In this document: positions 1 to 40,830 of the stretch, one piece after another
Numbering within the stretch: the first letter of the stretch is position 1
Layout of the letters: each line of letters opens with the position of its first letter
IMG/VR virus record: IMGVR_UViG_3300037589_000034
From: a virus
DNA: 46,273 bases
Reading direction: 5' to 3' (one strand)
The notes under the pieces: generated by a model
What the model saw: only the letters and a program-made list of their open reading frames with translations
What the model was told of the DNA's origin: nothing
Database searches by the model: none
Made by a program: the position numbers and the translations under genes

Positions 1-846
1 ATTGTATGCCCTTTGGATGGCCTGGAAATATGACAGCGGCCCGGCCTGGATCCGGTCCCTGGTTCCTGGTTCCTGGTTCCTGGTTCCTGGATCCGGTCCC
101 TGGTTCCCTGGTTCCTGGTTCCCTGGTATTAATATAGAGCTGCAGCGGCCCGGCCTGGATCCGGTCCCTGGTTCCTGGTTCCTGGTTCCTGGATCCGGTC
201 CCTGGTTCCCTGGTTCCTGGTTCCTGGTTCCTGGTTCCCTGGTTCCTGGTTCCCTGGTATTAATATAGAGCTGCAGCGGCCCGGCCTGGATCCGGTCCCT
301 GGTTCCTGGTTCCCTGGTTCCTGGTTCCTGGTTCCCTGGTTCCCTGGTTCCTGGTTCCCTGGTTCCTGGTTCCCTGGTTCCCTGGTTCCTGGTTCCCTGG
401 TTCCCTGGTTCCTGGTTCCCTGGTTCCTGGTTCCCTGGTTCCCTGGTTCCTGGTTCCCTGGTTCCTGGTTCCTGGTTCCCTGGTTCCTGGTTCCCTGGTA
501 TTAATATAGAGCTGCAGCGGCCCGGCCTGGATCCGGTCCCTGGTTCCTGGTTCCTGGTTCCTGGTTCCTGGTTCCTGGTTCCTGGTTCCCTGGTTCCTGG
601 TTCCTGGTTCCCTGGTTCCTGGTTCCCTGGTTCCTGGTTCCCTGGTATTAATATAGAGCTGCAGCGGCCCGGCCTGGATCCGGTCCCTGGTTCTTGGTTC
701 CTGGTTCCTGGATCCGGTCCCTGGTTCCCTGGTTCCTGGTTCCTGGTTCCTGGTTCCCTGGTTCCTGGTTCCTGGTTCCCTGGTTCCTGGTTCCCTGGTT
801 CCTGGTTCCCTGGTATTAATATAGAGCTGCAGCGGCCCGGCCTGGA
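1..846. repeat. Higher-order tandem array of 7/8-nt units (CCTGGTT / CCCTGGTT) punctuated by a 42-nt unit
   Basis: The 42-nt unit TATTAATATAGAGCTGCAGCGGCCCGGCCTGGATCCGGTCCC occurs at 127-168, 258-299, 499-540 and 646-687, with a truncated copy at 814-846. Between them are head-to-tail CCTGGTT/CCCTGGTT runs of unequal length (169-257, 300-498, 541-645, 688-813). Some runs carry an internal GGATCCGGTCCC. The array continues across the circular junction from about 46177. Confidence 0.95.
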
Positions 847-996
847 TATTTCAAAAAAATATTAAAATTTTTATCACTGAAAATCAGTGAGTTATAAAAA
901 AAAGTAAAAATATTTTTACAAAAATTTGCTTTTTAATTTCCGGCTGCTTTACTTTGGATCATCAAGTTTAAACAATCACAAAAAACAATCACAATC
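847..996 (+). promoter_or_regulatory. AT-rich region upstream of ardA; probable early promoter plus first copy of the conserved leader
   Basis: This is a very AT-rich 150 nt. It has a hairpin TCACTGA-AAA-TCAGTGA at 874-890 and the leader ATCAAGTTTAAACAATCACAAAAAACAATCACAATC at 961-996, directly 5' of the ATG. I could not identify an exact promoter consensus. Confidence 0.3.
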
Positions 997-1542
997 ATGA
1001 AAAATTTATCAATTCAATTAGATGAAATTCAGGTTTATGTAGGAACCTATCACAAGTACAATTCAGGATCATTGGCCGGGGATTGGGTTAATTTATCTCA
1101 ATTTTCAGATTTTGAGGAATTCCAGGAATTTATCAATGAATTGCACAGTGATGAGGATGATCCGGAGTTTATGTATCAAGACTTTGAATGTCCGGAATTG
1201 TTTAAATCAATGGAATTAATTTCTGAGTGCCATATTTCAGAAAATATTTTTGATGTCATTGAGGCACTTGAGGCCGCATATCTAGACATTGAAGTTTATT
1301 CTGCTTATGCTTCTCACACTGGATTTTCCGGAGATATTGAGGATCTAATTTCAGCAGCTGAGGAGGCCTATCAAGGGGAATTTGAATCTGATGAGGATTT
1401 TGCCCAAAATATGGCTGAGGATTTAGGATTGATCCAGGATAGGCCCGCATGGCCTCATTACTGCATAGATTGGGAATATGCCGCAAGGGAATTAATGTAT
1501 GATTATTTTGAGGAGTCCGGATATTATTTCAGGTCTCTATAA
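997..1542 (+). CDS. ardA: ArdA-like antirestriction protein (DNA mimic)
   Basis: 181 aa and very acidic. The segments VYVGTYHKYNSGSLAGDWVNLSQFSD..EF..ELHSDEDDPEFMYQDFE and C-terminal DWEYAARELMYDYFE match the ArdA family as I remember it, and the length is typical. Confidence 0.8.
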   Translation: MKNLSIQLDEIQVYVGTYHKYNSGSLAGDWVNLSQFSDFEEFQEFINELHSDEDDPEFMYQDFECPELFKSMELISECHISENIFDVIEALEAAYLDIEVYSAYASHTGFSGDIEDLISAAEEAYQGEFESDEDFAQNMAEDLGLIQDRPAWPHYCIDWEYAARELMYDYFEESGYYFRSL

Positions 1543-1621
1543 AAAATACCGGATCCAGGCCCGGCCTGGATCCACTCTAAAAAATCAAGTTTCACAATCA
1601 CAATTTTAAACAATCACAATC
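1543..1621 (+). repeat. Intergenic palindrome+leader unit, type 1
   Basis: A perfect 23-bp palindrome GGATCCAGGCC-C-GGCCTGGATCC lies at 1551-1573, followed by ACTCTAAAAAATCAAGTTTCACAATCACAATTTTAAACAATCACAATC and the ATG. The unit is 79/79 identical to 2696-2774. Confidence 0.95.
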
Positions 1622-1738
1622 ATGAAAAAATTAGCTCAAATTTTCCAGGCCTTATTTATTGTCTCATTTATTGCACTGGTTTTATATACCGGGTTCCACC
1701 TTTGCAAAGTTGAAATTAATCTATTCAGCGGCCTATAA
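1622..1738 (+). CDS. Small hydrophobic peptide (38 aa, one predicted TM segment)
   Basis: MKKLAQIFQALFIVSFIALVLYTGFHLCKVEINLFSGL. It is below the ORF-track cutoff, but it starts exactly after a type-1 leader and is followed by another unit. Confidence 0.55.
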   Translation: MKKLAQIFQALFIVSFIALVLYTGFHLCKVEINLFSGL

Positions 1739-1822
1739 TTAAGCCCGGCCCGGATCCAGGCCCGGCCTGGATCTACTCTAAAAAATCAAGTTTCACAATC
1801 ACAATTTTAAACAATCACAATC
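1739..1822 (+). repeat. Intergenic palindrome+leader unit, type 1
   Basis: GGATCCAGGCCCGGCCTGGATCT at 1752-1774 has one mismatch to the perfect palindrome. It carries the same leader as 1543-1621. Confidence 0.95.
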
Positions 1823-2695
1823 ATGAAAAAAGTACTAGAATTGACCACTGATATGATAGGATTTTCAAAAATCTGCAGCTATTGGGGCTATTTTTCAACT
1901 GAAAATATCATTGATTCATATACAATTAATGAGGATTTTGAGGCCGGATATTCAGATTTTAATTCTGAATATGCCCTTTATCACCTGGATGGATCCCGGA
2001 TTTTTGACAAAATTTCTGAATCAATAAATGAAATTTTGCCGGACCTGGTTTATGAATTGCAAGATTCAGGACTTAAATCGATTTTAGATATCACTCACTC
2101 CGGGTTTTCAAGTCCTAAATATTACAATTTTTCAGGTGATAGGTTTTATCTAGATTTTGAGGTCAATTGGCCAAAATTTCAAAAGCAGCTCAAAAAAATT
2201 GCTGCCAAAAATTCAGCTGAATTTTCAGATTTTCTCCGGGATAATTACAGCTCTAGAGATGGATTTATATCATTTACTGCAAATAATTTGGATCAATGGA
2301 TCCAGGATCTAGAGTCCGGAGATGTCACAGCTGCAGCAGCTTTTTTAACCTGGTTTATACATTCAAAAATAGATCTAGATTTTTCATTCCTGGTTTATGA
2401 AAATTTTTCTGAAAACTCATTTTATCCGGATTTTATAGATATGGATAGTCTAGAGGAGGCTATAAATGATATTAAGGCCGGGCAATATTTCAGCGGGATC
2501 TATCCAGGAATTGACCAGGATATGGAGTCTAATTTGATTATTAAATATCTAGACATTAATCCTGAATATATGCGGCCCGCTGCAGAAATAGCAGCTGAAT
2601 TGACCGAAAAATTTCCTGAAATAGAGATTGATTGGCTGCCAATAATTGAGAAAAAATTCCGGGATATTGATAGTCATACATTAAGCCTATTTTAA
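1823..2695 (+). CDS. Hypothetical acidic protein (290 aa)
   Basis: Long ORF starting right after the conserved leader and visibly rich in D/E. Motifs SPKYYNFSGDRFYLDF and SSRDGFISF are not assignable from memory. Confidence 0.7.
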   Translation: MKKVLELTTDMIGFSKICSYWGYFSTENIIDSYTINEDFEAGYSDFNSEYALYHLDGSRIFDKISESINEILPDLVYELQDSGLKSILDITHSGFSSPKYYNFSGDRFYLDFEVNWPKFQKQLKKIAAKNSAEFSDFLRDNYSSRDGFISFTANNLDQWIQDLESGDVTAAAAFLTWFIHSKIDLDFSFLVYENFSENSFYPDFIDMDSLEEAINDIKAGQYFSGIYPGIDQDMESNLIIKYLDINPEYMRPAAEIAAELTEKFPEIEIDWLPIIEKKFRDIDSHTLSLF

Positions 2696-2774
2696 AAAAT
2701 ACCGGATCCAGGCCCGGCCTGGATCCACTCTAAAAAATCAAGTTTCACAATCACAATTTTAAACAATCACAATC
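2696..2774 (+). repeat. Intergenic palindrome+leader unit, type 1
   Basis: Identical to 1543-1621. The palindrome lies at 2704-2726. Confidence 0.95.
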
Positions 2775-3377
2775 ATGAAAACTGTAGAAATTGAAATTTA
2801 TCAATTCAATGAATTAAGCCCAAAATCAAAGATTAAGGCACTAGAAAAATTTTCAGATATCAATGTAGATCATGGATGGTATGAATCAGTTTATGACTGG
2901 TTTATTGGCCGGGCCGCTGAGGCCGGATTTTCAGTAGATAGGATTTATTTTTCCGGGTTTTACTCTCAAGGTGATGGGGCTATGTTTGAATATTCAGATC
3001 CAGGAGATGATAAATTATTAAGGGAATTTATAGATACATTGGATCTATCACCTATGCGAAAATCTTGGCTATTGAGTCAAGTTTACTGCAGATATTCAGG
3101 CACTCATTCAGGCCATTATTATCATTCAGGCTGCTGCAGTCATTCAATCACTTTTGAGTCAAATTTTACCTGGTCTGCAGCTGAAAATTTTTCAGATTGG
3201 ATTGATAGTTTTCATTCAGATTTTGAGGAGTTTATTGAGTCAAAATATAGAGACCTTTGTGATGAGTTGTATGATAGTCTGCAGATTGATTATGAATATC
3301 TTACCTCAGAAGAGGCTATAATTGAGACAATTGAGGCCAATAATTACGAATTTTTTAGAGATGGATCTATCTATTAA
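2775..3377 (+). CDS. Hypothetical acidic protein (200 aa)
   Basis: ORF after the conserved leader. The motif IYFSGFYSQGDGAMFEY recalls conserved hypotheticals of mobile elements, but I cannot name a family. Confidence 0.7.
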   Translation: MKTVEIEIYQFNELSPKSKIKALEKFSDINVDHGWYESVYDWFIGRAAEAGFSVDRIYFSGFYSQGDGAMFEYSDPGDDKLLREFIDTLDLSPMRKSWLLSQVYCRYSGTHSGHYYHSGCCSHSITFESNFTWSAAENFSDWIDSFHSDFEEFIESKYRDLCDELYDSLQIDYEYLTSEEAIIETIEANNYEFFRDGSIY

Positions 3378-3452
3378 GCCCGGTCCGGATCCAGGTATTA
3401 AGGCCTGGATCCAGGCCTCAAAAAATCAAATTTCAAACAATCAAATTAAGCC
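3378..3452 (+). repeat. Intergenic palindrome+leader unit, type 2
   Basis: The hairpin GGATCCAGG-TATTAAGG-CCTGGATCC at 3387-3412 overlaps an 18-bp perfect palindrome AGGCCTGGATCCAGGCCT at 3401-3418. The leader is AAAAATCAAATTTCAAACAATCAAATTAAGCC followed by the ATG. Confidence 0.9.
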
Positions 3453-3647
3453 ATGAAAAATCAAGTTGAAAAAATTTTGTACGGAGTTAAAAAAGAAAAT
3501 CCGGACTATATGGAGGAAATAATCACTACTCATTCAGACCGGATTGAGGCTGCAAAAATTTGGGCCGCAAATAATGGGTTTAATCGATTTAGAGTAGCTG
3601 AAATAGATCTATCAATTAAGCCGGATTTTATTAAAACTATTCAATGA
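3453..3647 (+). CDS. Hypothetical protein (64 aa)
   Basis: ORF starting directly after a type-2 leader. Confidence 0.6.
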   Translation: MKNQVEKILYGVKKENPDYMEEIITTHSDRIEAAKIWAANNGFNRFRVAEIDLSIKPDFIKTIQ

Positions 3648-3724
3648 ATTAAGCCCGGCCCGGATCCAGGAATTAAGGCCTGGATCCGGACCTTAAAATC
3701 AAGTTTCAAACAATCAATTAAGCC
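3648..3724 (+). repeat. Intergenic palindrome+leader unit, type 2
   Basis: Hairpin GGATCCAGG-AATTAAGG-CCTGGATCC at 3662-3687. The 49 nt before the ATG are identical to those of the unit at 3890-3949. Confidence 0.9.
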
Positions 3725-3889
3725 ATGAATAATTTATCAGATATCGAAATTATAAATCTCCATGCTTTTGTTTTTTGGCCTGGAGTAGATATATCAATCC
3801 AGGCCATGAAAAAAGAATTAAGGAGTTTTTCCAGGTCCAGGAAAATATCAATCCAGGATATCATTAATGAAGAGAAAAATTTTCAATAA
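3725..3889 (+). CDS. Hypothetical protein (54 aa)
   Basis: MNNLSDIEIINLHAFVFWPG... It is below the ORF-track cutoff, but it is bracketed by two type-2 units and starts right after the leader. Confidence 0.5.
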   Translation: MNNLSDIEIINLHAFVFWPGVDISIQAMKKELRSFSRSRKISIQDIINEEKNFQ

Positions 3890-3949
3890 TAATCCAGGCC
3901 CGGCCTGGATCCGGACCTTAAAATCAAGTTTCAAACAATCAATTAAGCC
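3890..3949 (+). repeat. Intergenic palindrome+leader unit, type 2
   Basis: Palindrome ATCCAGGCC-C-GGCCTGGAT at 3892-3910, followed by the type-2 leader. Confidence 0.9.
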
Positions 3950-4384
3950 ATGAAAACTCAGTCAGTATCTCAGAAATTAGATAGCATATTTTTACCTATT
4001 GCTATTGATTCAAAATCACCGGAGGATTTTATTTTCCGGGCCCGGATCATTAAGTCAGTAGATCCGGAGATATCAAATTATTTTACCGAAAAATTTGGAT
4101 ATTCCGGAGGCAAAAAATTAAGCCTGAATCAAGCTGCAGAAAATTACTTAAATTATGCCATGGAAAAATCACAATCAAGGCCCGCAAAAAAACTAGATTC
4201 AGATCATCAAAGATTTAAGCAAATGATTAAGGCCATGGGAATGAGCTATAAATCATTAGCTGCAGATTTAGGCCTGGAGTACAATAGCCTCAAGTCTATG
4301 CTAGCCCCATCAAAGGAACTACCTAAATGGGCCATAAGCATGCTATTGGTTTATGAAAAAATGAATCAATCGGACCTGGATTAA
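3950..4384 (+). CDS. Hypothetical protein with C-terminal helix-turn-helix-like segment (144 aa)
   Basis: The C-terminal QMIKAMGMSYKSLAADLGLEYNSLKSMLAPSKELPKW looks like an XRE-type HTH. The N-terminal half is not recognised. Confidence 0.5.
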   Translation: MKTQSVSQKLDSIFLPIAIDSKSPEDFIFRARIIKSVDPEISNYFTEKFGYSGGKKLSLNQAAENYLNYAMEKSQSRPAKKLDSDHQRFKQMIKAMGMSYKSLAADLGLEYNSLKSMLAPSKELPKWAISMLLVYEKMNQSDLD

Positions 4385-4440
4385 GTCCAGGATCCGGACC
4401 TCAAAATCAAGTTTCACACAATTACAATCACAATTAAGCC
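4385..4440 (+). repeat. Intergenic palindrome+leader unit, type 3
   Basis: Degenerate palindrome GTCCAGGATCCGGAC at 4385-4399. The leader is CTCAAAATCAAGTTTCACACAATTACAATCACAATTAAGCC followed by the ATG. Confidence 0.85.
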
Positions 4441-4620
4441 ATGAAAAATTATAGCATAAATTACAACGTAGGATCCTCAAAGTATTTAGTCACTTTTTTT
4501 GATGGGATCAAGAAAAATAGAGATGGCAGTCATGCTGCAGATATTAGGATTTTTAAGAATAAAAAACTCCTAAAATCATTTATCTCAGATTTAGAAAATA
4601 AAGGTTTTAAAAAGAATTAA
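4441..4620 (+). CDS. Hypothetical protein (59 aa)
   Basis: MKNYSINYNVGSSKYLVTFFDGIKKNRDGSHAADIRIFKNKKLL... It starts right after a type-3 leader and is below the ORF-track cutoff. Confidence 0.55.
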   Translation: MKNYSINYNVGSSKYLVTFFDGIKKNRDGSHAADIRIFKNKKLLKSFISDLENKGFKKN

Positions 4621-4624
4621 GGCC

Positions 4625-4822
4625 ATGAGAGATCTATTCCTGGAGAAAATAATCAGTAAGGATATTATCATCAATAAAGGTGAAAATCTATCTATGTATT
4701 GTGGTCAAATAATGACTACAGAAGAGGCCTGGATCAAGGTGCATGAATTGATAAAATTAGGCCGGGCAAAAAAGGTCCTGGATAATGAGTACACTTTGCA
4801 ATATCACCTCCTGGATGATTAA
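4625..4822 (+). CDS. Hypothetical protein (65 aa)
   Basis: It starts 4 nt after the previous stop, in the context AATTAAGGCCATG. It forms a two-gene cassette with 4441-4620. Confidence 0.55.
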   Translation: MRDLFLEKIISKDIIINKGENLSMYCGQIMTTEEAWIKVHELIKLGRAKKVLDNEYTLQYHLLDD

Positions 4823-4873
4823 GTCCAGGATCTAAAATCAAAATCAAGTTTCAATCACAATCACAATTAAGCC
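4823..4873 (+). repeat. Intergenic leader unit, type 3 (palindrome truncated)
   Basis: GTCCAGGATCT followed by AAAATCAAAATCAAGTTTCAATCACAATCACAATTAAGCC and the ATG. Confidence 0.85.
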
Positions 4874-5050
4874 ATGAATCAATTAATCTATAGAATTCAC
4901 ACTGCAGACCGAAAAATCAAGTATGCAGGGACCGGACTAGACTCCTGGTTTACACTAGATCAAGCCCGGCAAAAAGTAGATCCATCAAGAGGAGAAAAAA
5001 TCTATCAATACTCCGGTCCTGGAGGAGATCCACTTTGGGAAATACTCTAA
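4874..5050 (+). CDS. Hypothetical protein (58 aa)
   Basis: MNQLIYRIHTADRKIKYAGTGLDSWFTLDQARQKVDPSRGEKIYQYSGPGGDPLWEIL. It starts right after a type-3 leader. Confidence 0.5.
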   Translation: MNQLIYRIHTADRKIKYAGTGLDSWFTLDQARQKVDPSRGEKIYQYSGPGGDPLWEIL

Positions 5051-5130
5051 ATAAATTAAGTCCGGATCCAATAATTAAGTCCAGGATCTGGACCTCAAAA
5101 TCAAGTTTCAATCACAATCACAATTAAGCC
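5051..5130 (+). repeat. Intergenic palindrome+leader unit, type 3
   Basis: GTCCGGATCC..GTCCAG-GAT-CTGGAC hairpin, followed by the leader CTCAAAATCAAGTTTCAATCACAATCACAATTAAGCC and the ATG. Confidence 0.85.
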
Positions 5131-5340
5131 ATGAAAAATCAAGTCAATCAATCTACAGATCTATTTCAATCCCTGGAATTATTGCCGGATACGGTCCAGG
5201 AGTGCATCAATCAATATGCTCAATCTGAGCAATTAAATTACCAGGAGTGTAAAGAATTCCAATCAAGGCTAGAATCAATGGGATATACTTTTGATTATTC
5301 CCTGGATGCCACTCCTTTCAATTTGAGAAAAATCAATTAA
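5131..5340 (+). CDS. Hypothetical acidic protein (69 aa)
   Basis: ORF starting right after a type-3 leader. Confidence 0.6.
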   Translation: MKNQVNQSTDLFQSLELLPDTVQECINQYAQSEQLNYQECKEFQSRLESMGYTFDYSLDATPFNLRKIN

Positions 5341-5370
5341 TCAAGTTTCAATCACAATCACAATTAAGCC
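5341..5370 (+). repeat. Leader-only unit, type 3
   Basis: TCAAGTTTCAATCACAATCACAATTAAGCC followed by the ATG, with no palindrome. Confidence 0.85.
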
Positions 5371-5781
5371 ATGAAAATTCAAGATCAAATCTCGAAAAAA
5401 ATTAAGTCACTCCAGGCCACAATTAAGGCCGGACATTGGCCAAAAGGATACCTGGACAATTGCAGATCTCAGGTAAATAGATATCAGACTCAGCTCGAAA
5501 TATTAGGCTATCCGGACCTAGATGGATTGAACCCTGTAGAGATCAATGAGCTCATCACAAAGTATCTCAATCGATTTGATGATTATGAGCAGCTCGCAAG
5601 TGATCAAGGAAAGTCCACTGCCATCATCACATTAGCCTATCACCGATTGGACCAGGAGAGATTCAAGATTAAGGCCGGACTGCCTCCTAATATCGAGCTG
5701 ATTAAGGCCTCCATTGAGCGAGCTCAGCAGCGGGCCATTGAGCTAGATCTCGAAAATTTGAGAGAGATCTTTGAGGCATAA
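5371..5781 (+). CDS. Hypothetical protein (136 aa), last gene of the cassette array
   Basis: ORF starting right after the leader. It is predicted helical, and I recognise no motif. Confidence 0.65.
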   Translation: MKIQDQISKKIKSLQATIKAGHWPKGYLDNCRSQVNRYQTQLEILGYPDLDGLNPVEINELITKYLNRFDDYEQLASDQGKSTAIITLAYHRLDQERFKIKAGLPPNIELIKASIERAQQRAIELDLENLREIFEA

Positions 5782-5788
5782 AAAAAAC

Positions 5789-5812
5789 CTCCGGGCAATC
5801 ACTCCCGGAGGC
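5789..5812 (+). other. Hairpin CCTCCGGG-CAATCACT-CCCGGAGG followed by a decayed leader copy
   Basis: An 8-bp stem preceded by an A-run, with no downstream T-run. It is followed by ATCAAGTTTCAACAATCTCGCCACAATCAC and a 5-codon ATG ORF, which looks like a vestigial cassette. Confidence 0.5.
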
Positions 5813-5916
5813 CATCAAGTTTCAACAATCTCGCCACAATCACGAAGCGAAAAAGTCAATGATCAAAGGTAAGTAAAAATATTACTACTTCGCAAATACA
5901 TTAAGTAACCAATCAC

Positions 5917-6406: not shown

Positions 6407-9400
6407 ATGGCAAAAAAGAAATTAAGGGATGAGGACCTGGTACTCAATATCATTGTCAATGGGGACCAAGGCAGAAAAGAAATCCTGGACCTGGAGAAGG
6501 CCATCAAGCAGACCAATAGAGAATTAAGGCAACTTGAGAGACAGCGAGAGGAGCTCATTAAGACTGGCAAAAAAGAGACTGCAGAATACAAGGCAGTCAC
6601 AGCGGCCATCGATCTAAAAAACTCCGCTCTCGATAAGGCTAGAGGCAGACTTGCACAATTAAGGCAGGGAATGGATCTCAATAGTAAGTCTGTATCTGAT
6701 CTCCGGAGAGAGATTACCAGGCTTACCAAGCTCCGCAATATAGCTCCTCCTATGACAGAGGAGTGGCATCGACACAATGAGCAGCTCCGGCTAGTCCAGG
6801 CTAGATATAATGAGCTCACAGGTAGAGCTCAAGGTTTGGGCAAGATGTTTTCCGGAGGCCTGGCAAAAGGCATCGGAGTAGCTGCAGCTGCAGTCACTTC
6901 TTTTGTGATCGCTGGTAGGCAAGTGATGAGAGTAGTGGATGATTTTGGCAGGTTTGATGATCTCCTGGCAGATGTCCGCAAGACTACCAATCTCACCTTT
7001 GGAGAGCTGGAGAATCTGAATGATGAGATTAAGTCAATCGATACCAGATCCTCACAGGAGGAGCTTCTCAAATTAGCCAGGACTGCAGGTAAGTTAGGGA
7101 TCGAAGGATCCGAGAATGTCCTGGGTTTTGTCAGAGCTGCAGACCAGATCGGAGTAGCTCTAGCAGAAGATCTCGGAGGAGATGTAGAGCAAGCTCTTCG
7201 CCAGGTAGGTAAGCTGGTAGATATATTCAATGTCCGGGAGGAGTTTGGCATCGAACAAGGCATGCTCAAGGTCGGATCTGTGATCAATGAGCTCGGGATC
7301 AATTCCACAGCTGCAGAGCAATACATGGTAGATTTTACCAAGCGATTGGCAGGTGTGGCTCCAGCTGCCAAGATCTCCATAGCCAATGTGATGGGATACT
7401 CATCCACACTGGATCAGCTCGGGCAGTCTGCAGAAGTAGCAGGGACCACCTTTGTCAATTTGATCCCGGATCTCTTTACCAATCCGAGCAAGTTTGCCAA
7501 GATTGCAGGGATCGAGGCTCAGGAGTTTTCTAGGATTCTGAATGAGGATGCTAATGAGGCATTGATCAAGCTCTTTGAGGGGATCAAAGGCAATGAATCA
7601 TCCATGACTGCCATGGCTCAGCGATTGGTCCAGCTAGGATTGGATGGAGCCAGAGCTACCAATGTAGTCTCAGCTCTTGCCAATAATACCGAGCTCCTAA
7701 GATCCGAGCAGGAGATAGCCAATAAGGCATTCAGAGAAGGGATCTCCCTGACCAATGAATTCAATATCAAGAATGAGACTCTCGCTGCCAATGTAGAAAA
7801 GATAGGAAGGTACTTCTACAATCTCTACATGAACTCCGAGCTCCGGGCCGGGATGAGGGATTTCTTTGGGGGAATAGCCGATTGGCTATACACTTCCAAT
7901 CAGGCCCTAAAGTCATTCCAGGAGCAGGATCAGGCAGTCCAGGCATTGGAGGCTAATGTCTCTCCACTCATCGCTAGATATGAGGAGCTGGAGACCAAGA
8001 CCAATAGATCTGCAGCTGAGAATGAGGAGCTCAAGACAGTGATCAATCAGATCGGAGCGGCCATCCCTGGAGCGATCACTCAGTTTGATGGCTATGGAAA
8101 TGCCATCGGGATCAGTACTGGTAAGGCTAAGGAGTTTATCGAAGCTCAAAGGCTCATGCTCAAGTATATGAATCGAGAGGCTATCGAGGATACTAAAGAG
8201 GGGCTGATCGACACAAAGGAGCAGATAGTTGATATTCTGCAGCAGCTCAATAGGAGAGATGCTGATGGAGATTTAGCTAAGCTGGTCAGTAGGCAATATG
8301 GATTTCAGATGATCACTGAGGAGGTGAAGCTCACTGCAGAAGAGATCGCAAATCTCCAGGCTAATCTAGCGGCTCTTCGTAAGCAGGAAAAAGACCAAGA
8401 GACACTCATCAAAGGTCTATCCGGAGAGATTGATCCTAATGAGGGATCCACCTCCGGCACAACTACCACTCCTCCTCCTACTCCAGAGCCAAAGACTGAG
8501 ACAGAAGAGGAGCGAAAGGCAAGAGAAGCTAGGGAAAAAGCTGCAGCTGCAGAGCGAGAGCGAGCTATCAAGGCAGCGCAAAAGCAAGCAGAGCAGGAGG
8601 CAGAGCTCCGGAGAAAATACATTATTGGTCAGCTGGACCTAGTGGCCCAGGAAAAGATCGCATACGAGGAGCGGCTCAAGGCAGCTGGCCTCTACTACCT
8701 ACGCAAGGATGAGATGAGTACCGAGCAGCTCCTTGCATACGAGGCTATGGAGGATGAGCACTTGCAAAAGCTAAATGATATCACCTCCAAGAGACTGGAT
8801 GAGAATCTCCAGACCAGAGAGGACCAGTACAAGGCAGATCTCCAGGCTCTCAAAACTCTTCACAATGAGGAGTATAAATCCTTTGAGACCATGGAGCAGA
8901 TCAAGTCATTTCTCCGGGACAAAGTTTCGAGAGAGACCTTGGATGGAATTACCAATATGCGCCAGGCTCAGATCGCATTGGATAAGCATTACCTGGCAGA
9001 GGAGGAGGAGCTCACCAGGCAGTATCTCAATGGATTGCTCCAGGACCTACAGATCCTGGCATCCACCGGACAGCTCGAAGGAGTGGACCTGGCAAATCAG
9101 ATCCTTTCACCAGAGCAAAAGGCAGAGCTGGAGGCTCGCATCGCTCAGATCAAGCTCATGCTATCAGAGCTCGGACTTGGATCCGGGACCGAGATCGAGG
9201 CAGATCGGGGAGAGCGGAGAAGAGATGTGGATGTCCTGGGATTCTCAGTAGATGATTGGCAGACATTCTTTGACAACCTGGACAAAGGCAAGGTAGGATT
9301 CAATGAAATGCTGATGGGAGTCCAGGCTCTGCAGGGAGTCTATGCGACCTATGCAGCCTATGTCTCTGCAGGAGAGCGAAAGCAGCTCCAGGAGTATGAG

Positions 9401-10213
9401 TCTGCCAATCGCAAAAAGCAAGACATCCTCAAAAAGCAATTGGATGCTGGTATAATTAACCAGGATCAATACAATAATCAGATCGAAAAGCTCAATGCAG
9501 ATCTGGACAAAAAGAAGGCAGTTTTTGATCGCAATGAGGCGAAGCGTGAGCGCAACATTGCCCTCATGACTGCCATCGTACAAGGAGCTGCAGCTGTAAA
9601 CTCAGCTCTCAAGCTCGGACCTGTTTTCGCTGCCATAGTAGGAGCTCTCGCTGCAGTACAAGTGGGCACTATCCTCAAGACTCCTCTCCCGGAAATTCCA
9701 GGAGCTGAGGATGGAGGATTTCTCCGGGATGTGGTCCGGGCCCAGGACAAAAAGATGTACCGGGCCAAGATGGATCCCGGCAAGCGAGGCTATGTGGATC
9801 GACCTACTGTCCTGGTAGGGGAGGGGAATAAGCGGGAGTTTGTAGCCTCAAATGAGGCAGTAGAAAATCCTACCATCGGTCCGGTACTGGATGCTATTGA
9901 TACAGCTCAGCGGCAAGGCAGGATCTCATCACTCAATCTATTCAAGGTCCTGGATCAGAATAAGCAGCTCATGGTCATGCCAGGCAGACAGCGAGGAGGC
10001 AGGATCTCCGATCAGTCAGCAGCTGGTAGATCCACTGCAGATGCACTCCTCCCAGACATGATGGATCTCCTACGCAAAAATGAGCGGACAATGGCTCAGC
10101 TCAATGCCAGGCTATCCAAGCCAATCAAATCGGATGTCTCACTCACAGGCAGAGGATCTCTCGAAGAGAAGCAGGATGAGCTCCAGGTAATAGAACAATC
10201 AGCCAATCTTTAA
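6407..10213 (+). CDS. Tail tape measure protein
   Basis: 1268 aa, with long coiled-coil stretches and hydrophobic G/A-rich segments. The core TTNLTFGELENLNDEIKSIDTRSSQEELLKLARTAGKLGIEG..VLGFVRAADQIGVAL resembles the TP901-type tape-measure core. Confidence 0.85.
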   Translation: MAKKKLRDEDLVLNIIVNGDQGRKEILDLEKAIKQTNRELRQLERQREELIKTGKKETAEYKAVTAAIDLKNSALDKARGRLAQLRQGMDLNSKSVSDLRREITRLTKLRNIAPPMTEEWHRHNEQLRLVQARYNELTGRAQGLGKMFSGGLAKGIGVAAAAVTSFVIAGRQVMRVVDDFGRFDDLLADVRKTTNLTFGELENLNDEIKSIDTRSSQEELLKLARTAGKLGIEGSENVLGFVRAADQIGVALAEDLGGDVEQALRQVGKLVDIFNVREEFGIEQGMLKVGSVINELGINSTAAEQYMVDFTKRLAGVAPAAKISIANVMGYSSTLDQLGQSAEVAGTTFVNLIPDLFTNPSKFAKIAGIEAQEFSRILNEDANEALIKLFEGIKGNESSMTAMAQRLVQLGLDGARATNVVSALANNTELLRSEQEIANKAFREGISLTNEFNIKNETLAANVEKIGRYFYNLYMNSELRAGMRDFFGGIADWLYTSNQALKSFQEQDQAVQALEANVSPLIARYEELETKTNRSAAENEELKTVINQIGAAIPGAITQFDGYGNAIGISTGKAKEFIEAQRLMLKYMNREAIEDTKEGLIDTKEQIVDILQQLNRRDADGDLAKLVSRQYGFQMITEEVKLTAEEIANLQANLAALRKQEKDQETLIKGLSGEIDPNEGSTSGTTTTPPPTPEPKTETEEERKAREAREKAAAAERERAIKAAQKQAEQEAELRRKYIIGQLDLVAQEKIAYEERLKAAGLYYLRKDEMSTEQLLAYEAMEDEHLQKLNDITSKRLDENLQTREDQYKADLQALKTLHNEEYKSFETMEQIKSFLRDKVSRETLDGITNMRQAQIALDKHYLAEEEELTRQYLNGLLQDLQILASTGQLEGVDLANQILSPEQKAELEARIAQIKLMLSELGLGSGTEIEADRGERRRDVDVLGFSVDDWQTFFDNLDKGKVGFNEMLMGVQALQGVYATYAAYVSAGERKQLQEYESANRKKQDILKKQLDAGIINQDQYNNQIEKLNADLDKKKAVFDRNEAKRERNIALMTAIVQGAAAVNSALKLGPVFAAIVGALAAVQVGTILKTPLPEIPGAEDGGFLRDVVRAQDKKMYRAKMDPGKRGYVDRPTVLVGEGNKREFVASNEAVENPTIGPVLDAIDTAQRQGRISSLNLFKVLDQNKQLMVMPGRQRGGRISDQSAAGRSTADALLPDMMDLLRKNERTMAQLNARLSKPIKSDVSLTGRGSLEEKQDELQVIEQSANL

Positions 10214-20590: not shown

Positions 20591-20845
20591 ATGAATTATT
20601 TAACCCCCATGGATGCAAGGAATCTTTTTACCAGATTGAGAGAATTAAACACTGAGAGTATTTCCCTAGAGCTGCAGCAGCTCCAGGATCTAGTAGTCAA
20701 GCACTACGATCCAGAGCTACCAGCCAAAAGCCTGATTGAAACTTACACTATGCTCTCCTCTATTGACAATCTGATCCGGGACCTTGCATTACTCGCATCT
20801 CAGATCGAAGGCGATCAAGATCTACATGAGAGTAAATCATCGTAG
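20591..20845 (+). CDS. Doubtful ORF (84 aa) converging on and overlapping the integrase 3' end
   Basis: The ORF is open, but 86 nt overlap the integrase on the opposite strand. It lies in the probable attP region. Confidence 0.25.
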   Translation: MNYLTPMDARNLFTRLRELNTESISLELQQLQDLVVKHYDPELPAKSLIETYTMLSSIDNLIRDLALLASQIEGDQDLHESKSS

Positions 20846-22040
20846 TGCTGATCTTGGAGTGGCCTAGTAGTTTCTGCAGGACTTCTATATGGCCTCCTCT
20901 CCGGAGAAATTCAGTTGCGAAAGTATGCCTGGCTACATGAGTGGTCAGGCATTTTCTTATTTCGGACCTCCCGGCTATATCCTTTAGGATCTCATTGTGA
21001 TTTTTCATGGTAGTGGTATCAAAGAGCTTTCCTTTTTTATTCTGGACCAGCGCAAAGGCATCCTCAGTGATCGGGACTGTCACTCGCTTTTCGATGCCTC
21101 TTGTCTTGTGTGGAATGAATATCAAGAGATCATCCTCGATCTCCTTCCAGGTGACTCGCTCGATATCCGAAAATCGGAGCCCGGTCAAAGTGGAAAACAA
21201 AAAGGCTCCCAGGACTCGCTTATGGGATGGCAGGATATCCTCTGACTGGTAGTAGTGCCACAGTTTTTTGAGCTCTGCAGGATTGCAATAGACTATCCTG
21301 CCATTGGTAGATGGCATCTTAAATTCTGCTATAGACTCCATATTTACTGCCATCCCTACCTTGCTCGCTCTCCGGGCCTGAGACTTGATGGTTTTTAAGA
21401 TGGACCAGGATCCATTGACAGATAGGCCTTCATTTTTCCTGAGCCAGGCATGCAGACTCTCCAGACTCTCCTCATTTAGCTCTGAGAATCTCCATTCACT
21501 TCTCCATCCTTGGACTCGCTTGATTTGACTCTTTAGGTTTTTGTAGGTCTGCAGCTCGATCTTACCTGCATGATATCGATCCTCGATGTCCTGATTAGAC
21601 CAGGCTAGGAAATCTTTTCGGAGGCCATAGCGGCCATATTCCCGGACAAACTCCTCAATGCTCAGCTCAAAGTCCGAGTGCCTGTAGAATAGAAATATAT
21701 CATTGATTTTGGCTAGCTCTTTTTGAGCAAGCAGATTGTAGTCAGTAGCGAGCTGATCTGTTTTGGTCCTGGGGAGAAACTGACCGGATCGATTGTCAAA
21801 TTTATCGATGGGCCAGCTGATTTTGAGTGGGATCTGAGTCCGGCTAGAATTGATCAGTACCTGGATGTAGATAGGAGCTAGTCCCTCCTTATTAGGCCTG
21901 TCTCTCCGGATCCTTACTGCAGCACTAGCTCGCATGTCTCCTTTTTTCGTGTGAAAAATTGGAGACATGCGCTTGCTTAAAGTGCCTGTTTTGGCCATTC
22001 TGGACATTTGTGTGAAATTTTGTGTGAAACCAAAATCCAC
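20760..22040 (-). CDS. int: Tyrosine recombinase / phage integrase
   Basis: The C-terminal HVARHTFATEFLRRGGHIEVLQKLLGHSKISTTMIYSHV carries the H-x-x-R ... Y catalytic pattern. LTGLRFSDI holds the R box. The N-terminal RIRRDRPNKEGLAPIYIQV arm-type domain is as in Bacteroidota integrases. The true start may be an internal Met (21935-22007). Confidence 0.9.
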   Translation of the reverse strand: MDFGFTQNFTQMSRMAKTGTLSKRMSPIFHTKKGDMRASAAVRIRRDRPNKEGLAPIYIQVLINSSRTQIPLKISWPIDKFDNRSGQFLPRTKTDQLATDYNLLAQKELAKINDIFLFYRHSDFELSIEEFVREYGRYGLRKDFLAWSNQDIEDRYHAGKIELQTYKNLKSQIKRVQGWRSEWRFSELNEESLESLHAWLRKNEGLSVNGSWSILKTIKSQARRASKVGMAVNMESIAEFKMPSTNGRIVYCNPAELKKLWHYYQSEDILPSHKRVLGAFLFSTLTGLRFSDIERVTWKEIEDDLLIFIPHKTRGIEKRVTVPITEDAFALVQNKKGKLFDTTTMKNHNEILKDIAGRSEIRKCLTTHVARHTFATEFLRRGGHIEVLQKLLGHSKISTTMIYSHVDLDRLRSEMRVMQGPGSDCQ

Positions 22041-22110
22041 TTCCAGAGATTGTACGAGGCATTTCTGCCTTTTTTTGTACCCAGAGCCGGAGTATTTTTA
22101 CTTTTGTAAT

Positions 22111-22149: not shown

Positions 22150-22572
22150 TCATTCTGGAGGCTCTTGATTTTTCAGCCTCTCCATTAATAGCTCATTGTG
22201 CCGCTCTAGCAGCTCTACATATTTCTTTCTCCAGTATTCTATTTTCTCCAGGAGACTTGTATCCTGCTCGGAGTCACTGGATCCTCTCTCCTCCATCGGA
22301 GCGATTAGCTCCCAATCCATGGCCAGCTCCGGGAATTCCTTCCGGAAATCGTAATTCATGGCCTTTCCCCAGCGGAGAATAATATGGTTCGGGAGATCAT
22401 CCTTCTCAAAATGCCTGTAGGGAGTACTCTGATCGTATCCTGCTTTTTTTGCCAAAGCTGTCAAGCTCAGGCCTTGCATATTGCAGTACCTGTATATGAC
22501 ATCTTTCAGTATTTTTCCTTTGTGAATCAGCACATTACAAAAAGACTGATATTTTTTATGAATAAATTCCAT
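22150..22572 (-). CDS. HTH (XRE-like) repressor candidate, CI-like
   Basis: The 140-aa version starts at MEFIHKKYQSF. The segment CNMQGLSLTALAKKAGYDQSTPYRHF is an HTH. The gene is divergent from the + strand early genes and co-oriented with int. The track ORF extends to 22722 across the operator region. Confidence 0.6.
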   Translation of the reverse strand: MEFIHKKYQSFCNVLIHKGKILKDVIYRYCNMQGLSLTALAKKAGYDQSTPYRHFEKDDLPNHIILRWGKAMNYDFRKEFPELAMDWELIAPMEERGSSDSEQDTSLLEKIEYWRKKYVELLERHNELLMERLKNQEPPE

Positions 22573-22676
22573 GAAAATATTTGTTTGGTTACTGTTTTTA
22601 CTGTAAGATTGCTGTATAGTTACTGCATAAGTACAGTAAATAATCATGTGACACAATACCAGTTTTCTACTAGACA
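22573..22676. promoter_or_regulatory. Divergent promoter/operator region of the lysis-lysogeny switch
   Basis: Four copies of TTACTG: direct at 22589, 22598 and 22620, and inverted (CAGTAA) at 22634. They sit in a 104-nt gap between divergent genes. Confidence 0.5.
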
Positions 22677-22901
22677 ATGATTTCAGAAAAAGAATTGACA
22701 GCCCTAAAATCCTCACTTCCAAGAGGATATTTCAAAAAAACTCTCCTTAAAACCTCCCTTTCCGAGAAAACAGTCTCAAACTTCTTCTCCGGAAAATCAT
22801 ACAACCTGGAGGTACATGAGGCCGCTCTTGAGGTCCTTAAAGAGGATCAGTTGCGGAAAAATGCAGTGATCAAGCAGCAAAACGAATTCATTCATGAATA
22901 A
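22677..22901 (+). CDS. Small early regulator candidate (Cro-like position, 74 aa)
   Basis: This is the first + strand gene divergent from the repressor. The call rests on position only. Confidence 0.4.
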   Translation: MISEKELTALKSSLPRGYFKKTLLKTSLSEKTVSNFFSGKSYNLEVHEAALEVLKEDQLRKNAVIKQQNEFIHE

Positions 22902-23487
22902 GAAAAAGCTCATCTCCGAAATGAAAAAATGTGTTCAAGGTCCAATCCCCTCCGGGATAGATGATGAGAACATCGAATTTTTTGCAAAGGGTGAGCTGGT
23001 CTATGCCATCATGAATCAAGAGATCATCCCCTCATACGAATGGCCTGAATGGCTCTTTGAGATTATCGAAAAAGATATGGAGGCTAATCCTGCAGCTGTA
23101 GAGTCCCTGGTCACACTTGGACTCGATGGCAGAAGAGAGATGATCGATCAATACATCCGATGCAGATATGGATCCCTGGACAATGATCCGGATCTAGTAG
23201 CTGGAGTCATGCAGGATACCGAGTACGTATCCTGTCACCTGAGAGGAAGCTGCCCATTTGAGGGGAAGTTGTGCGAGTTGTTTAAAGCTCCCTATGGGAC
23301 AATCACCCAAAGAGAGATCCAAGTACTCCGGCTGATACCAGAAGGCCTCCTGGACAAGGAGATCGCTGATCAGCTAGGGATCTCTCCTCTTACTGTAGAG
23401 GTCTATATGAAATCCCTCCGGGCTAAAACCGGATGTAAGAATAAAGCAGAACTGGTCCGATTTGCATTTAATCACAACCTGCTATGA
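22894..23487 (+). CDS. LuxR/GerE-type HTH transcription regulator
   Basis: The C-terminal ITQREIQVLRLIPEGLLDKEIADQLGISPLTVEVYMKSLRAKTGCKNKAELVRFA is a GerE-type HTH. The Cys-containing N-terminal 130 aa are not recognised. Confidence 0.75.
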   Translation: MNKKKLISEMKKCVQGPIPSGIDDENIEFFAKGELVYAIMNQEIIPSYEWPEWLFEIIEKDMEANPAAVESLVTLGLDGRREMIDQYIRCRYGSLDNDPDLVAGVMQDTEYVSCHLRGSCPFEGKLCELFKAPYGTITQREIQVLRLIPEGLLDKEIADQLGISPLTVEVYMKSLRAKTGCKNKAELVRFAFNHNLL

Positions 23488-33304: not shown

Positions 33305-34252
33305 ATGACACAACTAGCGGCTAATTGGCCTTTCCTACTGGTAAATCAGATTGTCCGGGGTAAATTTTTTATCAAACCGGAGATCGCTGGAGCTATGGCT
33401 CCGCAGCTGGTGGACCTACTCCAGGGAAAGCACACCAAAGGAGACAAGCGAAATATCCGGATCGAGGTATTAGGCGATTCCATGTCTCAATCGAATTTTC
33501 GAAAAGCATACATCCTCGATGATGATGAGTCGGAAGCAGATGAGCGGGAGAGCAGCATCTATGACGAAGCTCCGGAGGGATCTGCAGCCATTATCCCGCT
33601 CAAGGGATCAATGATGAAGTATGGCTCTTGGTGCGAGTATGGCACAGCTGAAATCGCAGACATGCTTAGATCAGCTGCCTCTCATAAGAATGTAGCAGCC
33701 ATTGTACTGGATATCGATTCTGGAGGAGGAGCTGTAGATGCCATCGCTCCGATGGTAGATGCTATCAAATATGCCCGAGAGATGGGCAAGCCAGTAGTGG
33801 CCTCTGTGGACCTGTGTTGCTCTGCAGCGATGTGGGTAGCCTCAGAGTGTGACTACATCATGGCTGACAATGATGTATCAGCGGAGGTAGGATCTATAGG
33901 AGTCATGATGTCATTCATGGATATGAGAGCTTACTATGAGGAGAAGGGGATCAAGGTCCATGAGATCTACTCATCACTATCTGCCAATAAAAATCTCAGT
34001 TTCAGAGAGGCTAGAGATGGAGAATATGACAAAATCACCAGCGAGGAGCTAGATCCTCTCGCTGTATCCTTCCAGGAGGCCATCAAGAAAAATAGAGGTA
34101 CGAAACTGGACCTGTCCGATGAGGGGATCCTCTCCGGAAAAACCTATTTCGCCAAGGATGCACTACGATTGGGATTGATTGATCGAATAGGATCCCGATC
34201 CATGGCAGTCCAAGTGGCCATAGCAATGTCTCACGCAAAAAACTTAGTATAA
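33305..34252 (+). CDS. Prohead (head maturation) protease, S49/SppA (ClpP-fold) family
   Basis: IIPLKGSMMKYGS...NVAAIVLDIDSGGGAVDAIAPMVDAIKYAR..GKPVVASVDLCCSAAMWVASECDYIMA..SAEVGSIGV are characteristic S49 peptidase motifs. Confidence 0.85.
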   Translation: MTQLAANWPFLLVNQIVRGKFFIKPEIAGAMAPQLVDLLQGKHTKGDKRNIRIEVLGDSMSQSNFRKAYILDDDESEADERESSIYDEAPEGSAAIIPLKGSMMKYGSWCEYGTAEIADMLRSAASHKNVAAIVLDIDSGGGAVDAIAPMVDAIKYAREMGKPVVASVDLCCSAAMWVASECDYIMADNDVSAEVGSIGVMMSFMDMRAYYEEKGIKVHEIYSSLSANKNLSFREARDGEYDKITSEELDPLAVSFQEAIKKNRGTKLDLSDEGILSGKTYFAKDALRLGLIDRIGSRSMAVQVAIAMSHAKNLV

Positions 34253-34272
34253 ACCTTAACCAATTTCCAATC

Positions 34273-35850: not shown

Positions 35851-35884
35851 GTTCAATTCGTAAACCTTAAATCCTAATCAAAAA

Positions 35885-36442
35885 ATGGCAAACGTATCTA
35901 TTCCAAAAATAAAGACCGGAGCAGGAGCTCCGGTCCCAAAGGAGCCAAATGTGATCTTTATCCTGGCATCTGATGTGGCCACTATGCCCTCCAAGAATGG
36001 AGTGGTATCCACCTCGGATCTACAGCTTAAAGATGGCAAAAAAGGCTATGCTGTGTACTTGACTCCTAAATCCATCAATCGATTTGACTCATCCGAGGGA
36101 GAGACATCCGATGAGATGGGAGGATTCCTTAGCAATTTTGCAGGAAATCGCCCAGGTGATGATGAGCACTTTTCTAATTGGATTCAAGAAAATCTCAATG
36201 AGGGTTTCTTGATCCTGTCGAAGGAGTGTGGAGACAATCTTGGAACCAGACTGCAGGGTACTCCTTGCAATCCGCTCTACATGAGTGTGACTGGTCAGGA
36301 TAATGCAGAAGGCAAGATGAGCGAGCTCAATTTTGTCTCTGGTCAGAGATCTAAGTTTAAGATGATTCACTACAGAGGAGCGGATCCAGCTGTCTATGAT
36401 GGACCAGTTGATTCCGGATCATCTGCAGGAGGAGGTATCTAA
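35885..36442 (+). CDS. Head-associated protein (decoration or minor capsid candidate, 185 aa)
   Basis: It follows the capsid gene and ends in DSGSSAGGGI, the same tail as the capsid candidate. Confidence 0.4.
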   Translation: MANVSIPKIKTGAGAPVPKEPNVIFILASDVATMPSKNGVVSTSDLQLKDGKKGYAVYLTPKSINRFDSSEGETSDEMGGFLSNFAGNRPGDDEHFSNWIQENLNEGFLILSKECGDNLGTRLQGTPCNPLYMSVTGQDNAEGKMSELNFVSGQRSKFKMIHYRGADPAVYDGPVDSGSSAGGGI

Positions 36443-36455
36443 TCCTTAATGTAAT

Positions 36456-37415: not shown

Positions 37416-37418
37416 TTC

Positions 37419-38090: not shown

Positions 38091-38120
38091 TTATGCAGTA
38101 AATTTCAGTAAATTAACACC

Positions 38121-40767: not shown

Positions 40768-40807
40768 AATTCACTTATAAGTTAATTTCTCCATTCTCCA
40801 GGCTGAG

Positions 40808-40820: not shown

Positions 40821-40830
40821 GATTTGGTAG

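Follow-up and report, generated by a model that had tools for sequence, protein, structure and literature searches.

In phage T7, repeats adjoin the terminal repetition ahead of gene 0.3, and these heptamers are spaced, not contiguous. The direct repeat (DR) arrays of the herpesvirus 'a' sequence and the sub-telomeric repeats of poxviruses also sit beside termini. Arrays of the omega type hold about 7-10 WATCACW heptads, direct and inverted. In plasmid pSM19035, parS consists of short heptad arrays, which are functional with at least four contiguous repeats (PMC9499535). In Haemophilus influenzae, an (ATCTTTC)n heptanucleotide repeat upstream of hmw1A tunes transcription; present in tens of copies in the 5' untranslated region, it is variable among strains and also within them, and it acts through a hairpin cleaved by RNase III (PMC12721329, PMC2424069). 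Tandem repeats are pervasive across the giant archaeal Borg element, where they are often intragenic and make disordered protein regions (PMC9879509). Conjugative plasmids carry anti-defence islands in their leading regions, which rely on single-strand promoters (Frpo) and on the order of entry in conjugation (PMC11541004). Here we describe an array of contiguous 7- and 8-nt units in a phage genome, the IMG/VR virus record IMGVR_UViG_3300037589_000034 (46,273 nt; this whole stretch is called the window), where the array borders an island of small genes led by the anti-restriction gene ArdA.

The array, which is genuine and stable over the two samples compared, is a non-coding higher-order tandem repeat, in which a microsatellite of 7/8-nt units is nested in a minisatellite of 131-241 nt. 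Tailed-phage genomes are compact, and it is rare for them to contain a long and pure tandem array that is non-coding. While the non-coding higher-order tandem repeat is a known kind of sequence, one that bounds a phage anti-restriction island is a new variant. It is of note because it is reproducible, is tied to an exchangeable anti-restriction island and has a positional orthologue built from a different unit. We tentatively prefer to read it as a minisatellite of the island junction which has at most a sequence-independent role in cis (spacer, insulator or loose binding platform), although we would not go so far as to call this probable.

With the Borg repeats the array shares that it is a near-perfect, fast-evolving tandem repeat which arises independently in related mobile elements and is virtually absent from the host; the phage, however, has a single intergenic higher-order array in 46 kb. 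Plasmid leading regions are comparable in the ArdA-led cluster of small genes, in the repeated non-coding boundary elements and in the hotspot character of the locus, with ArdC-N and RadC in relatives. They differ in that the carrier here is a phage, and no Frpo-like element was identified.

Layout and authenticity of the array

The components of the array are as follows (8 stands for CCCTGGTT and 7 for CCTGGTT).

34-846, plus strand: entire higher-order array, from the first CAGCGGCCCGGCCTGGATCCGGT to the shortened fifth punctuation unit; the same in the independent contig L225
57-85, plus strand: unit run 1, pattern 8777
86-97, 188-199 and 707-718, plus strand: 12-nt interrupter CCTGGATCCGGT
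98-120, plus strand: unit run 2, pattern 887
121-165, plus strand: punctuation copy 1, 45 nt, CCCTGGTATTAATATAGAGCTGCAGCGGCCCGGCCTGGATCCGGT
166-187, plus strand: unit run 3, pattern 877
200-251, plus strand: unit run 4, pattern 8877787
252-296, plus strand: punctuation copy 2
297-492, plus strand: unit run 5, 26 units, pattern 87877887878878878788787787
493-537, plus strand: punctuation copy 3
538-639, plus strand: unit run 6, 14 units, pattern 87777778778787
640-684, plus strand: punctuation copy 4
685-706, plus strand: unit run 7, one 8, the variant CTTGGTT, one 7
719-807, plus strand: unit run 8, 12 units, pattern 887778778787
808-846, plus strand: punctuation copy 5, shortened after GGAT at the start of the AT-rich promoter/leader region
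46147-46273, plus strand: assembly overlap, an exact duplicate of 1-127 and not additional DNA

By a greedy parse, the eight runs hold 40 exact copies of CCTGGTT and 31 of CCCTGGTT, on the plus strand only. The lone deviating unit is CTTGGTT at 693 (71 of 72 units exact). Tandem Repeats Finder scored 45-814 as a period of 7 with 104.9 copies. The first-pass annotation, which had been made from the letters alone, described head-to-tail 7- and 8-nt units that are interrupted five times by one repeated unit, and we recover this layout. The interruptions (starts at 121, 252, 493, 640 and 808) have exactly the start-to-start spacing given there (131, 241, 147 and 168 nt), and we delimit the interrupting unit, referred to as the punctuation unit, as 45 nt. 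Copies 1-4 are identical throughout, and copy 5 is identical as far as its end after GGAT. The second interrupter of 12 nt (starts at 86, 188 and 707) was absent from that account. The proposed relationship between the punctuation unit and the palindromes of the neighbouring gene cassettes also holds, as its 16-mer GGCCCGGCCTGGATCC is the right half of GGATCCAGGCCCGGCCTGGATCC.

As had been stated, the array region is non-coding and lies directly 5' of the ArdA-led genes. The non-coding gap measures 1,286 nt, from the stop codon of a lipoprotein-like gene (45856) to the ATG of ArdA (997). The unit runs are devoid of A on the plus strand and thus have no start or stop codons. An open reading frame (ORF) at 2-268, and the gene called there by the Joint Genome Institute (JGI), exist solely through this lack of A; a coding region is ruled out, with the mixture of 7- and 8-nt units scrambling the reading frame. 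A CRISPR array was also rejected: the 'spacers' would be low-complexity heptad runs totalling 64-196 nt between punctuation units, and neither cas genes nor an Rfam match were found for the array.

The unique circle comprises 46,146 bp, with a circular-assembly overlap of 127 nt, and the circular junction is an arbitrary linearisation point. The roughly 100 nt of further array which had been counted on the other side of the junction were double-counted, 46147-46273 being a copy of 1-127.

Since the window is a circular assembly with an overlap that extends into the array, and since short-k Logan contigs of this phage end precisely at the first unit, the repeat might be thought to have been collapsed or inflated by assembly. 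However, an independent JGI contig of 623,102 nt (L225; sample 3300076194, Ga0645789_00029) holds the phage with the identical array and the same 1,286-nt gap; it matches the window in 13,380 of 13,380 nt, from 35132 across the junction and the complete array to 2365. The array is likewise identical in a JGI contig from sample 3300037590. The longest exact internal repeat within 1-900 is 120 nt and each 127-mer is unique, so that a graph with k=127 resolves the array unambiguously. A halt of short-k contigs at the first unit is what one would expect from a real repeat. The question of an assembly artefact, which had been left to long reads, is thus settled as far as assemblies can show, and we consider an artefact virtually inconceivable. 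In practical terms, the array breaks short-k assemblies exactly at the island boundary. The comparison of array lengths covers two samples, 3300037590 and 3300076194, which possibly contain one strain.

The island, its boundary element and the orthologous array

The locus was compared with a Mongoliitalea lutea prophage (L230), a Cyclobacterium xiamenense prophage (L231), an IMG/VR provirus (L235), two contigs of a third relative that end at the conserved element described below (L227 and L228), and a contig of a closer relative with this type of island (L232; JGI 3300037300). The relevant features of the window are:

46111-46146, plus strand: conserved element, left part, with GC-rich box GAATCGACCCCCGGTCCGCCCTCCCGGCC; kept in L230, L231, L235 and L227
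1-33, plus strand: conserved element, right part, with the end of near-palindrome TGCAATTGTA (from 46144), CCCTTTG and GGAAATATGA
847-996, plus strand: AT-rich stretch between array and ArdA, orthologous to the post-array flank of L232
997-1542, plus strand: ArdA anti-restriction gene, first of the island (PHROG 2059 at 5.7e-28; PF07275)
997-5781, plus strand: island of accessory cassettes, with ArdA and about 12 small ORFs; missing from L230 and L231
1551-1573, 1752-1774, 2704-2726 and 3890-3912: cassette palindrome GGATCCAGGCCCGGCCTGGATCC, located 3' of several cassette ORFs
2044-2051, with further copies at 2349, 2389, 4944 and 5965, plus strand: dispersed CCTGGTTT, between the array and a 124-aa gene
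2775-3377: 200-aa island protein, PHROG 5162
3950-4384: helix-turn-helix (HTH)-like ORF of the island

Immediately upstream of the array is a conserved non-coding element of about 70 nt which in the relatives consists of the GC-rich box, the palindrome TGCAATTGCA (in the window TGCAATTGTA) and GGATATATGA (in the window GGAAATATGA). It is preceded by phased A-tracts and is located between the portal and tape-measure blocks across several genera (L230 16740-16830; L231 17555-17650; L235, minus strand, 1060-1150). Synteny of the prophages L230 and L231 with the window extends as far as the 141-aa gene (44869) and resumes at the 124-aa gene (6024) and the tape-measure gene. The distance from the element to the 124-aa gene is 270-290 nt in these prophages compared to about 5.98 kb in the window. 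According to alignment and tblastx, the homology of the window with these relatives ends exactly at the array start, and no tandem array is present at this locus in L230, L231 and L235, which keep the element. The break in homology together with the synteny indicates that array and ArdA cassettes came as one insertion just downstream of the element, and the array with the ArdA-led cassettes thus appears as an insertion of about 6 kb between the TerL/portal and tape-measure blocks, with the array as the upstream edge of a horizontally exchanged island.

Accessory or anti-restriction genes are inserted to either side of the element. Genes of the RadC, ArdC-N and HicA/HicB types are found on its other side, on the minus strand, in L230 (15341-16436) and L231 (13929-17270). 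In the window, three direct copies of AAAAATCGC (45985-45993, 46041-46049 and 46088-46096; spaced by 56 and 47 nt) occupy the AT-rich stretch immediately left of the element, and similar A-tract/GC motifs occur in relatives. In two relatives, the GC-rich box CCGACTCCG recurs downstream in inverted form, CGGAGTCGG, at a distance of about 175-190 nt (L230 16751/16925; L235, reverse complement, 41/230); the box of the window has no such partner.

The element may be a cos/pac site, an operator or a promoter. Were it cos/pac, the array would lie beside a virion end as a set of sub-terminal or packaging repeats, serving as an exonuclease buffer or as a terminase or ejection-control region, or ArdA would be placed at the entering end. 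Several observations fit this. The element, in contrast to its flanks, is conserved across genera, it combines phased A-tracts with a GC-rich box and a palindrome, and its function must be independent of the distance to the tail genes, the island having been inserted between them. Genes of anti-restriction type on either side have a direction of transcription that leads away from the element (ArdA in the window; RadC and ArdC-N in L230/L231), five assemblies have contig ends within about 80 nt of it (cluster near 46110-46147), and a homologue of the 200-aa island protein is encoded in the terminal repeat of Caulobacter phage CcrSC. Like the arrays of T7, the herpesvirus 'a' sequence and poxviruses, the present one is a non-coding short-unit array by a conserved cis element and, as in T7, is followed by a first-expressed anti-restriction gene. 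Unlike in those systems, there are relatives that retain the conserved element and have no array, which is therefore unnecessary for packaging. In addition, the genes for TerL and portal are 3.6-5.4 kb upstream (TerL 5.4 kb) and do not adjoin the element, contigs from three samples read through it, and the contig ends are scattered rather than at a single nucleotide. Assemblies of integrated prophages also break at the repeats, as contigs L232 and L099 illustrate, and this explains at least part of the clustering of ends. We thus regard a packaging role of the array as distinctly unlikely.

The island has about 35% G+C compared to about 46% elsewhere, and the conserved leader CAATCACAAT precedes each small ORF (15 occurrences, plus strand only). 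By reading, the stretch 847-996 includes a hairpin, TCACTGAaaaTCAGTGA, as well as a promoter-like TTTG...TACTTTG and, as leader of the first cassette, ATCATCAAGTTTAAACAATCACAA. The palindrome GGATCCAGGCCCGGCCTGGATCC, with a chance expectation of 0.00, has its right half in each punctuation unit. Cassette palindromes (1550-1574, 2703-2727, 3896-3918 and 5786-5813) score as intrinsic terminators on the minus strand only, because the T-run follows on that strand while an A-run precedes on the plus strand; the genes preceding them are on the plus strand.

The contig L232 has the same leader-type cassettes and a 124-aa protein that is 73% identical, and it starts inside an array. At least six super-repeats of 41-57 nt make up this array, each consisting of TGGATCTGGTATCAATACAA, (TGGTG/TGGGTG)n and CCTGGTTCA. 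The 150-nt flank which follows it (L232 296-480) shows 78% column identity to 847-996 of the window, and its punctuation CTGGTATCAATACAATG is homologous to CTGGTATTAATATAGAG of the window. CCTGGTT occurs once per super-repeat in L232 and is amplified in the window; in L232, TGGTG is amplified instead. Judged from this pair, position and architecture of the array seem to be conserved while the unit sequence is not. Both phages that have this type of island have an array, and none of the three that lack the island does.

Scans of IMG/VR for the 7-8-7 unit motif gave no match, and those for the cassette-leader pattern returned only L233, which is the contig of L232, and a chance hit (L234). A metagenome scan for three consecutive units, a poorly chosen pattern, gave at least 120 unrelated short runs (3-11 units of 7 nt); one match, L175, is a degenerate 8-mer satellite of eukaryote-like appearance. 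A blastn search of bases 1-1000 against phage GenBank gave no match. Among ArdA relatives (72 genome loci and 20 viral loci, with at most 45% identity over the full length and up to 68% over short partial matches) no comparable upstream array was found, and arrays are also absent near the homologues of the 200-aa island protein in IMG/VR. Homologues of this protein are known from jumbo and large lytic phages; the location of the one from CcrSC is consistent with an early or host-takeover role of the protein.

In L232/L233, the irregular TGGTG/TGGGTG units of the array (1-320) resemble yeast telomeric TG1-3 repeats, and a distinct 7-nt array (ACTGCCA, 9.6 copies; L233 9955-10021) is located about 10 kb downstream on the same contig. 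In a Prevotella prophage, 18-nt tandem arrays flank ArdA (L063, 9505-9808 and 13408-13905; L075, 8305-8626 and 12225-12722). Their six-codon period suggests coding hexapeptide repeats, and they are probably unrelated to the present array.

Origin and possible roles of the array

The preferred reading, a minisatellite of the island junction, takes its support from the boundary between element and array. The copy at this boundary shares 31 nt, CAGCGGCCCGGCCTGGATCCGGTCCCTGGTT, with all punctuation units, and the AATATGA ahead of CAGCGGCCCGGCCTGGATCCGGTCCCTGGTT resembles AATATAGA of the punctuation. By reading, the motif CAGCGGCC...CGGCCTGGATC also corresponds, apart from an internal deletion, to the 3' end of the 38-aa cassette together with its palindrome. 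The super-repeat could thus have been seeded from the junction itself, with a diverged copy of the last bases of the element (AATAT-GA...CAGC); within the punctuation, the element-derived bases would give way to the right half of the cassette palindrome, with the TGGAT motif after it. After such a junction duplication, unequal recombination would multiply the super-repeats, and replication slippage would amplify a short seed (CCTGGTT or CCCTGGTT) inside each of them.

On this account the array may act as an upstream spacer or insulator of about 0.8 kb, which would part the promoter/leader of the island (847-996) from the element and the strongly terminated late genes upstream, or it may provide a multi-site platform of low specificity for an island regulator. 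The array lacks TTTG/CAAA, the core of Bacteroidota promoters, on both strands, and promoters inside the punctuation units are therefore rejected. RNA folding of both strands yielded just 2-bp CC/GG helices in a diffuse ensemble, and Rfam gave nothing relevant at gathering and E-value thresholds. With no gene, promoter core or defined fold, any function is most likely in cis and largely independent of the unit sequence. A Chi-like site was also considered: CCTGGTT has a strand ratio of 4:0 in 17 kb of host flank, but so do 167 other 7-mers.

Three points weigh against the junction minisatellite. A neutral by-product should decay, so that 71 exact units out of 72 and identical punctuation units imply very recent or ongoing homogenisation; yet two samples, possibly of the same strain, do not differ in length. 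The retention of 0.8 kb in a size-limited genome, with an array at the same place in a relative, hints at selection. It is above all this purity and this persistence that speak against a purely neutral reading. Finally, the five plus-strand copies of CCTGGTTT found from the array to the 124-aa gene would agree with a ligand that is sequence-specific; allowing for the overall enrichment of CCTGG, their excess is modest (P about 0.002). A functional array would represent a cis element new to phage anti-defence islands, and one without function would be a clean natural example of the birth of a minisatellite at a recombination junction.

The dispersed copies bear on a sequence-specific alternative, in which a DNA-binding protein of phage or island would bind cooperatively to the CCTGGTT/CCCTGGTT units and the array would control the ArdA island as its operator, as a site where a silencer nucleates or as a sink for protein. 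Outside the array, CCTGGTT occurs on the plus strand only at these five sites, each reading CCTGGTTT[A/G][T/C], and nowhere in the other 40 kb. The zero-order expectation for them is 0.04, but it is about 0.9 given the local excess of CCTGG, and conditional on this enrichment the excess is modest. The units of the array itself are contiguous, in a single orientation and near-perfectly homogeneous, and they are located roughly -100 to -930 from the predicted island promoter. Candidate binders exist, namely the HTH-like ORF 3950-4384, a GerE/LuxR protein (22894-23487) and a repressor-like ORF (22150-22722), and there are precedents in the heptads (PMC9499535) and in mycobacteriophage stoperators (PMC9283540). 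However, no ribbon-helix-helix (RHH), ParB or other known repeat-binding domain turned up in the ORFs scanned, the spacing of 7/8 bp is irregular, and 71 units far exceed any known operator. Moreover, the orthologous array in L232 amplifies another unit, of which the L232 island has no dispersed copies. We consider such a binding array unlikely.

Its more specific form, an operator or centromere of the omega type as proposed in the first-pass annotation, is unsupported. A resemblance may be seen in the contiguous units of about 7 bp, which are arranged head to tail 5' of genes, in non-coding DNA. The omega arrays are short, plasmid-borne and accompanied by a cognate RHH protein and ParA, whereas the phage has a 40:31 mixture of strictly direct 7/8-bp units, broken by units of 12 and 45 nt, which is not conserved in the relative L232, and it has an integrative lifestyle (tyrosine integrase). 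Integration at a tRNA-Leu gene removes the need for a centromere. Scans of about 65 ORFs with Pfam and PHROGs gave no RHH (Arc, MetJ, CopG), ParA, ParB or Rep domain, although very small or novel folds could escape such searches.

As a cis partner of the island, the array might also be a high-copy DNA or RNA decoy that titrates a TGGT-recognising host factor, such as a defence sensor, a nuclease or a silencer, or a platform that loads a phage regulator. The change of unit (CCTGGTT here, TGGTG in L232) would then have come about through co-evolution with the recognised factor. We see only a slim chance for this; if true, phages would possess a new type of non-coding element that serves anti-defence or regulation.

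A contingency locus, in which slippage would alter the unit number and so tune transcription of the ArdA operon, had been another suggestion. A pure heptad-type simple repeat 5' of the first gene is what is expected from the precedents (PMC12721329, PMC2424069), and unit as well as length have turned over between related phages. As in hmw1A/hmw2A, a pure 7-nt tandem repeat made by slippage lies 5' of the first gene of an operon and could tune its expression. Unlike the hmw repeat, the phage array comprises 0.8 kb, is of higher order and thus far larger than known contingency repeats, and has no hairpin partner. It stops about 150 nt short of the ATG, 5' of the predicted promoter and leader rather than in the interval from promoter to gene. 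It is identical in two samples and assemblies, and its determinate assembly at k=127 implies little heterogeneity within the population. Rapid copy-number switching is thus disfavoured, even though the unit has turned over between relatives, and we rate a rheostat of this kind as very unlikely.

If the array were transcribed from a promoter in the conserved element, an RNA with about 70 CCUGGUU motifs would result, which could act as a leader or as a sponge for a factor that recognises CCUGGUUU in island mRNAs. The array is co-oriented with all neighbouring genes, its A-free unit runs lack start and stop codons, the dispersed copies share the orientation of the island transcripts in which they lie, and the element has TTTG boxes. 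By reading, the spacing of these boxes misfits the Bacteroidota -33/-7 promoter, and three intrinsic terminators precede the region. There is also no defined fold or Rfam match, no cognate RNA-binding protein is known, and the unit differs in L232. We consider a repeat RNA highly improbable.

For a replication origin, which had been listed among the options, we found nothing in support, and the primase/helicase gene is about 20 kb away. An origin of iteron type is rejected: although AT-rich flanks do exist, the units have 7/8 bp compared to about 17-22 bp for iterons, and the sole replication gene identified is this distant one.

Carrier phage and palindrome usage

The carrier is a temperate siphovirus of a Cyclobacteriaceae-like host (Cytophagales, Bacteroidota) and integrates into tRNA-Leu. 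The following features of its genome are referred to above or below:

6407-10213: tape-measure protein
20760-22040, minus strand: tyrosine integrase with Bacteroidota-type arm-binding and SAM-like domains
22074-22093: attP core TTTGTACCCAGAGCCGGAGT, equal to the 3' end of the host tRNA-Leu gene; prophage junctions in L096 and L102
22150-22722: repressor-like ORF
22894-23487: GerE/LuxR protein
24492-27395: primase/helicase-like gene, the sole replication gene identified, about 20 kb from the array
33305-34252: S49 head protease
39019-40767: TerL, 582 aa, resembling the terminase annotated in Bacteroides phage BT-TP2 (37% identity, E = 2e-113)
41132-42511: portal, 459 aa, homologous to annotated portal proteins
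45076-45366: small gene upstream of the array, followed by a canonical intrinsic terminator
45491-45856: lipoprotein-like gene upstream of the array, followed by a canonical intrinsic terminator

The portal has hundreds of relatives, and the named ones are chiefly from Cyclobacteriaceae (Mongoliitalea, Cyclobacterium, Mariniradius). SRA sample SRR7051019 shows the phage in its integrated state, flanked by host genes on either side. About 22 kb separate the array from att; it lies inside the prophage, also in the 623-kb contig, and with the att core at 22074-22093 an attP site in the array is ruled out. Scans for tRNA and tmRNA genes in the window and its relatives found none.

The order of the late genes (33305-44869) is unusual: the S49 protease is followed by a 525-aa protein, further ORFs, TerL, portal and three ORFs, and this block is followed by the accessory hotspot and then by the tape-measure gene. 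TerL and portal were missed by Pfam, PHROG annotation and sequence searches of the PDB, and were recognised only via annotated Bacteroidota phages; the PDB searches with three large ORFs gave no match.

The genome outside the array (861-46146) shows a strong bias in palindrome usage. While 5-13 copies are expected of each, 28 of the 64 six-base palindromes have zero copies. CGCG is absent (108 expected) and ACGT is found 11 times (172 expected). Others are strongly enriched, with 94 copies of TCCGGA, 85 of CTGCAG and 82 of GGATCC compared to 8.4 expected for each, and 604 copies of GATC compared to 172 expected. The even distribution of GGATCC and TCCGGA across the three codon phases indicates an effect at the DNA level. 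None of the palindromes missing from the phage genome is present in the array or its punctuation; the six-base palindromes found there are GGATCC and CTGCAG, which are both enriched in the genome, and ATTAAT, which occurs at about the expected rate. The palindrome profile is an unusually extreme record of restriction pressure, and this signature is perhaps the more valuable lead than the array. The bias is far milder in the host flanks, and the relatives avoid other palindromes, with zero copies of CTGCAG in L228 and of GGATCC in L232.

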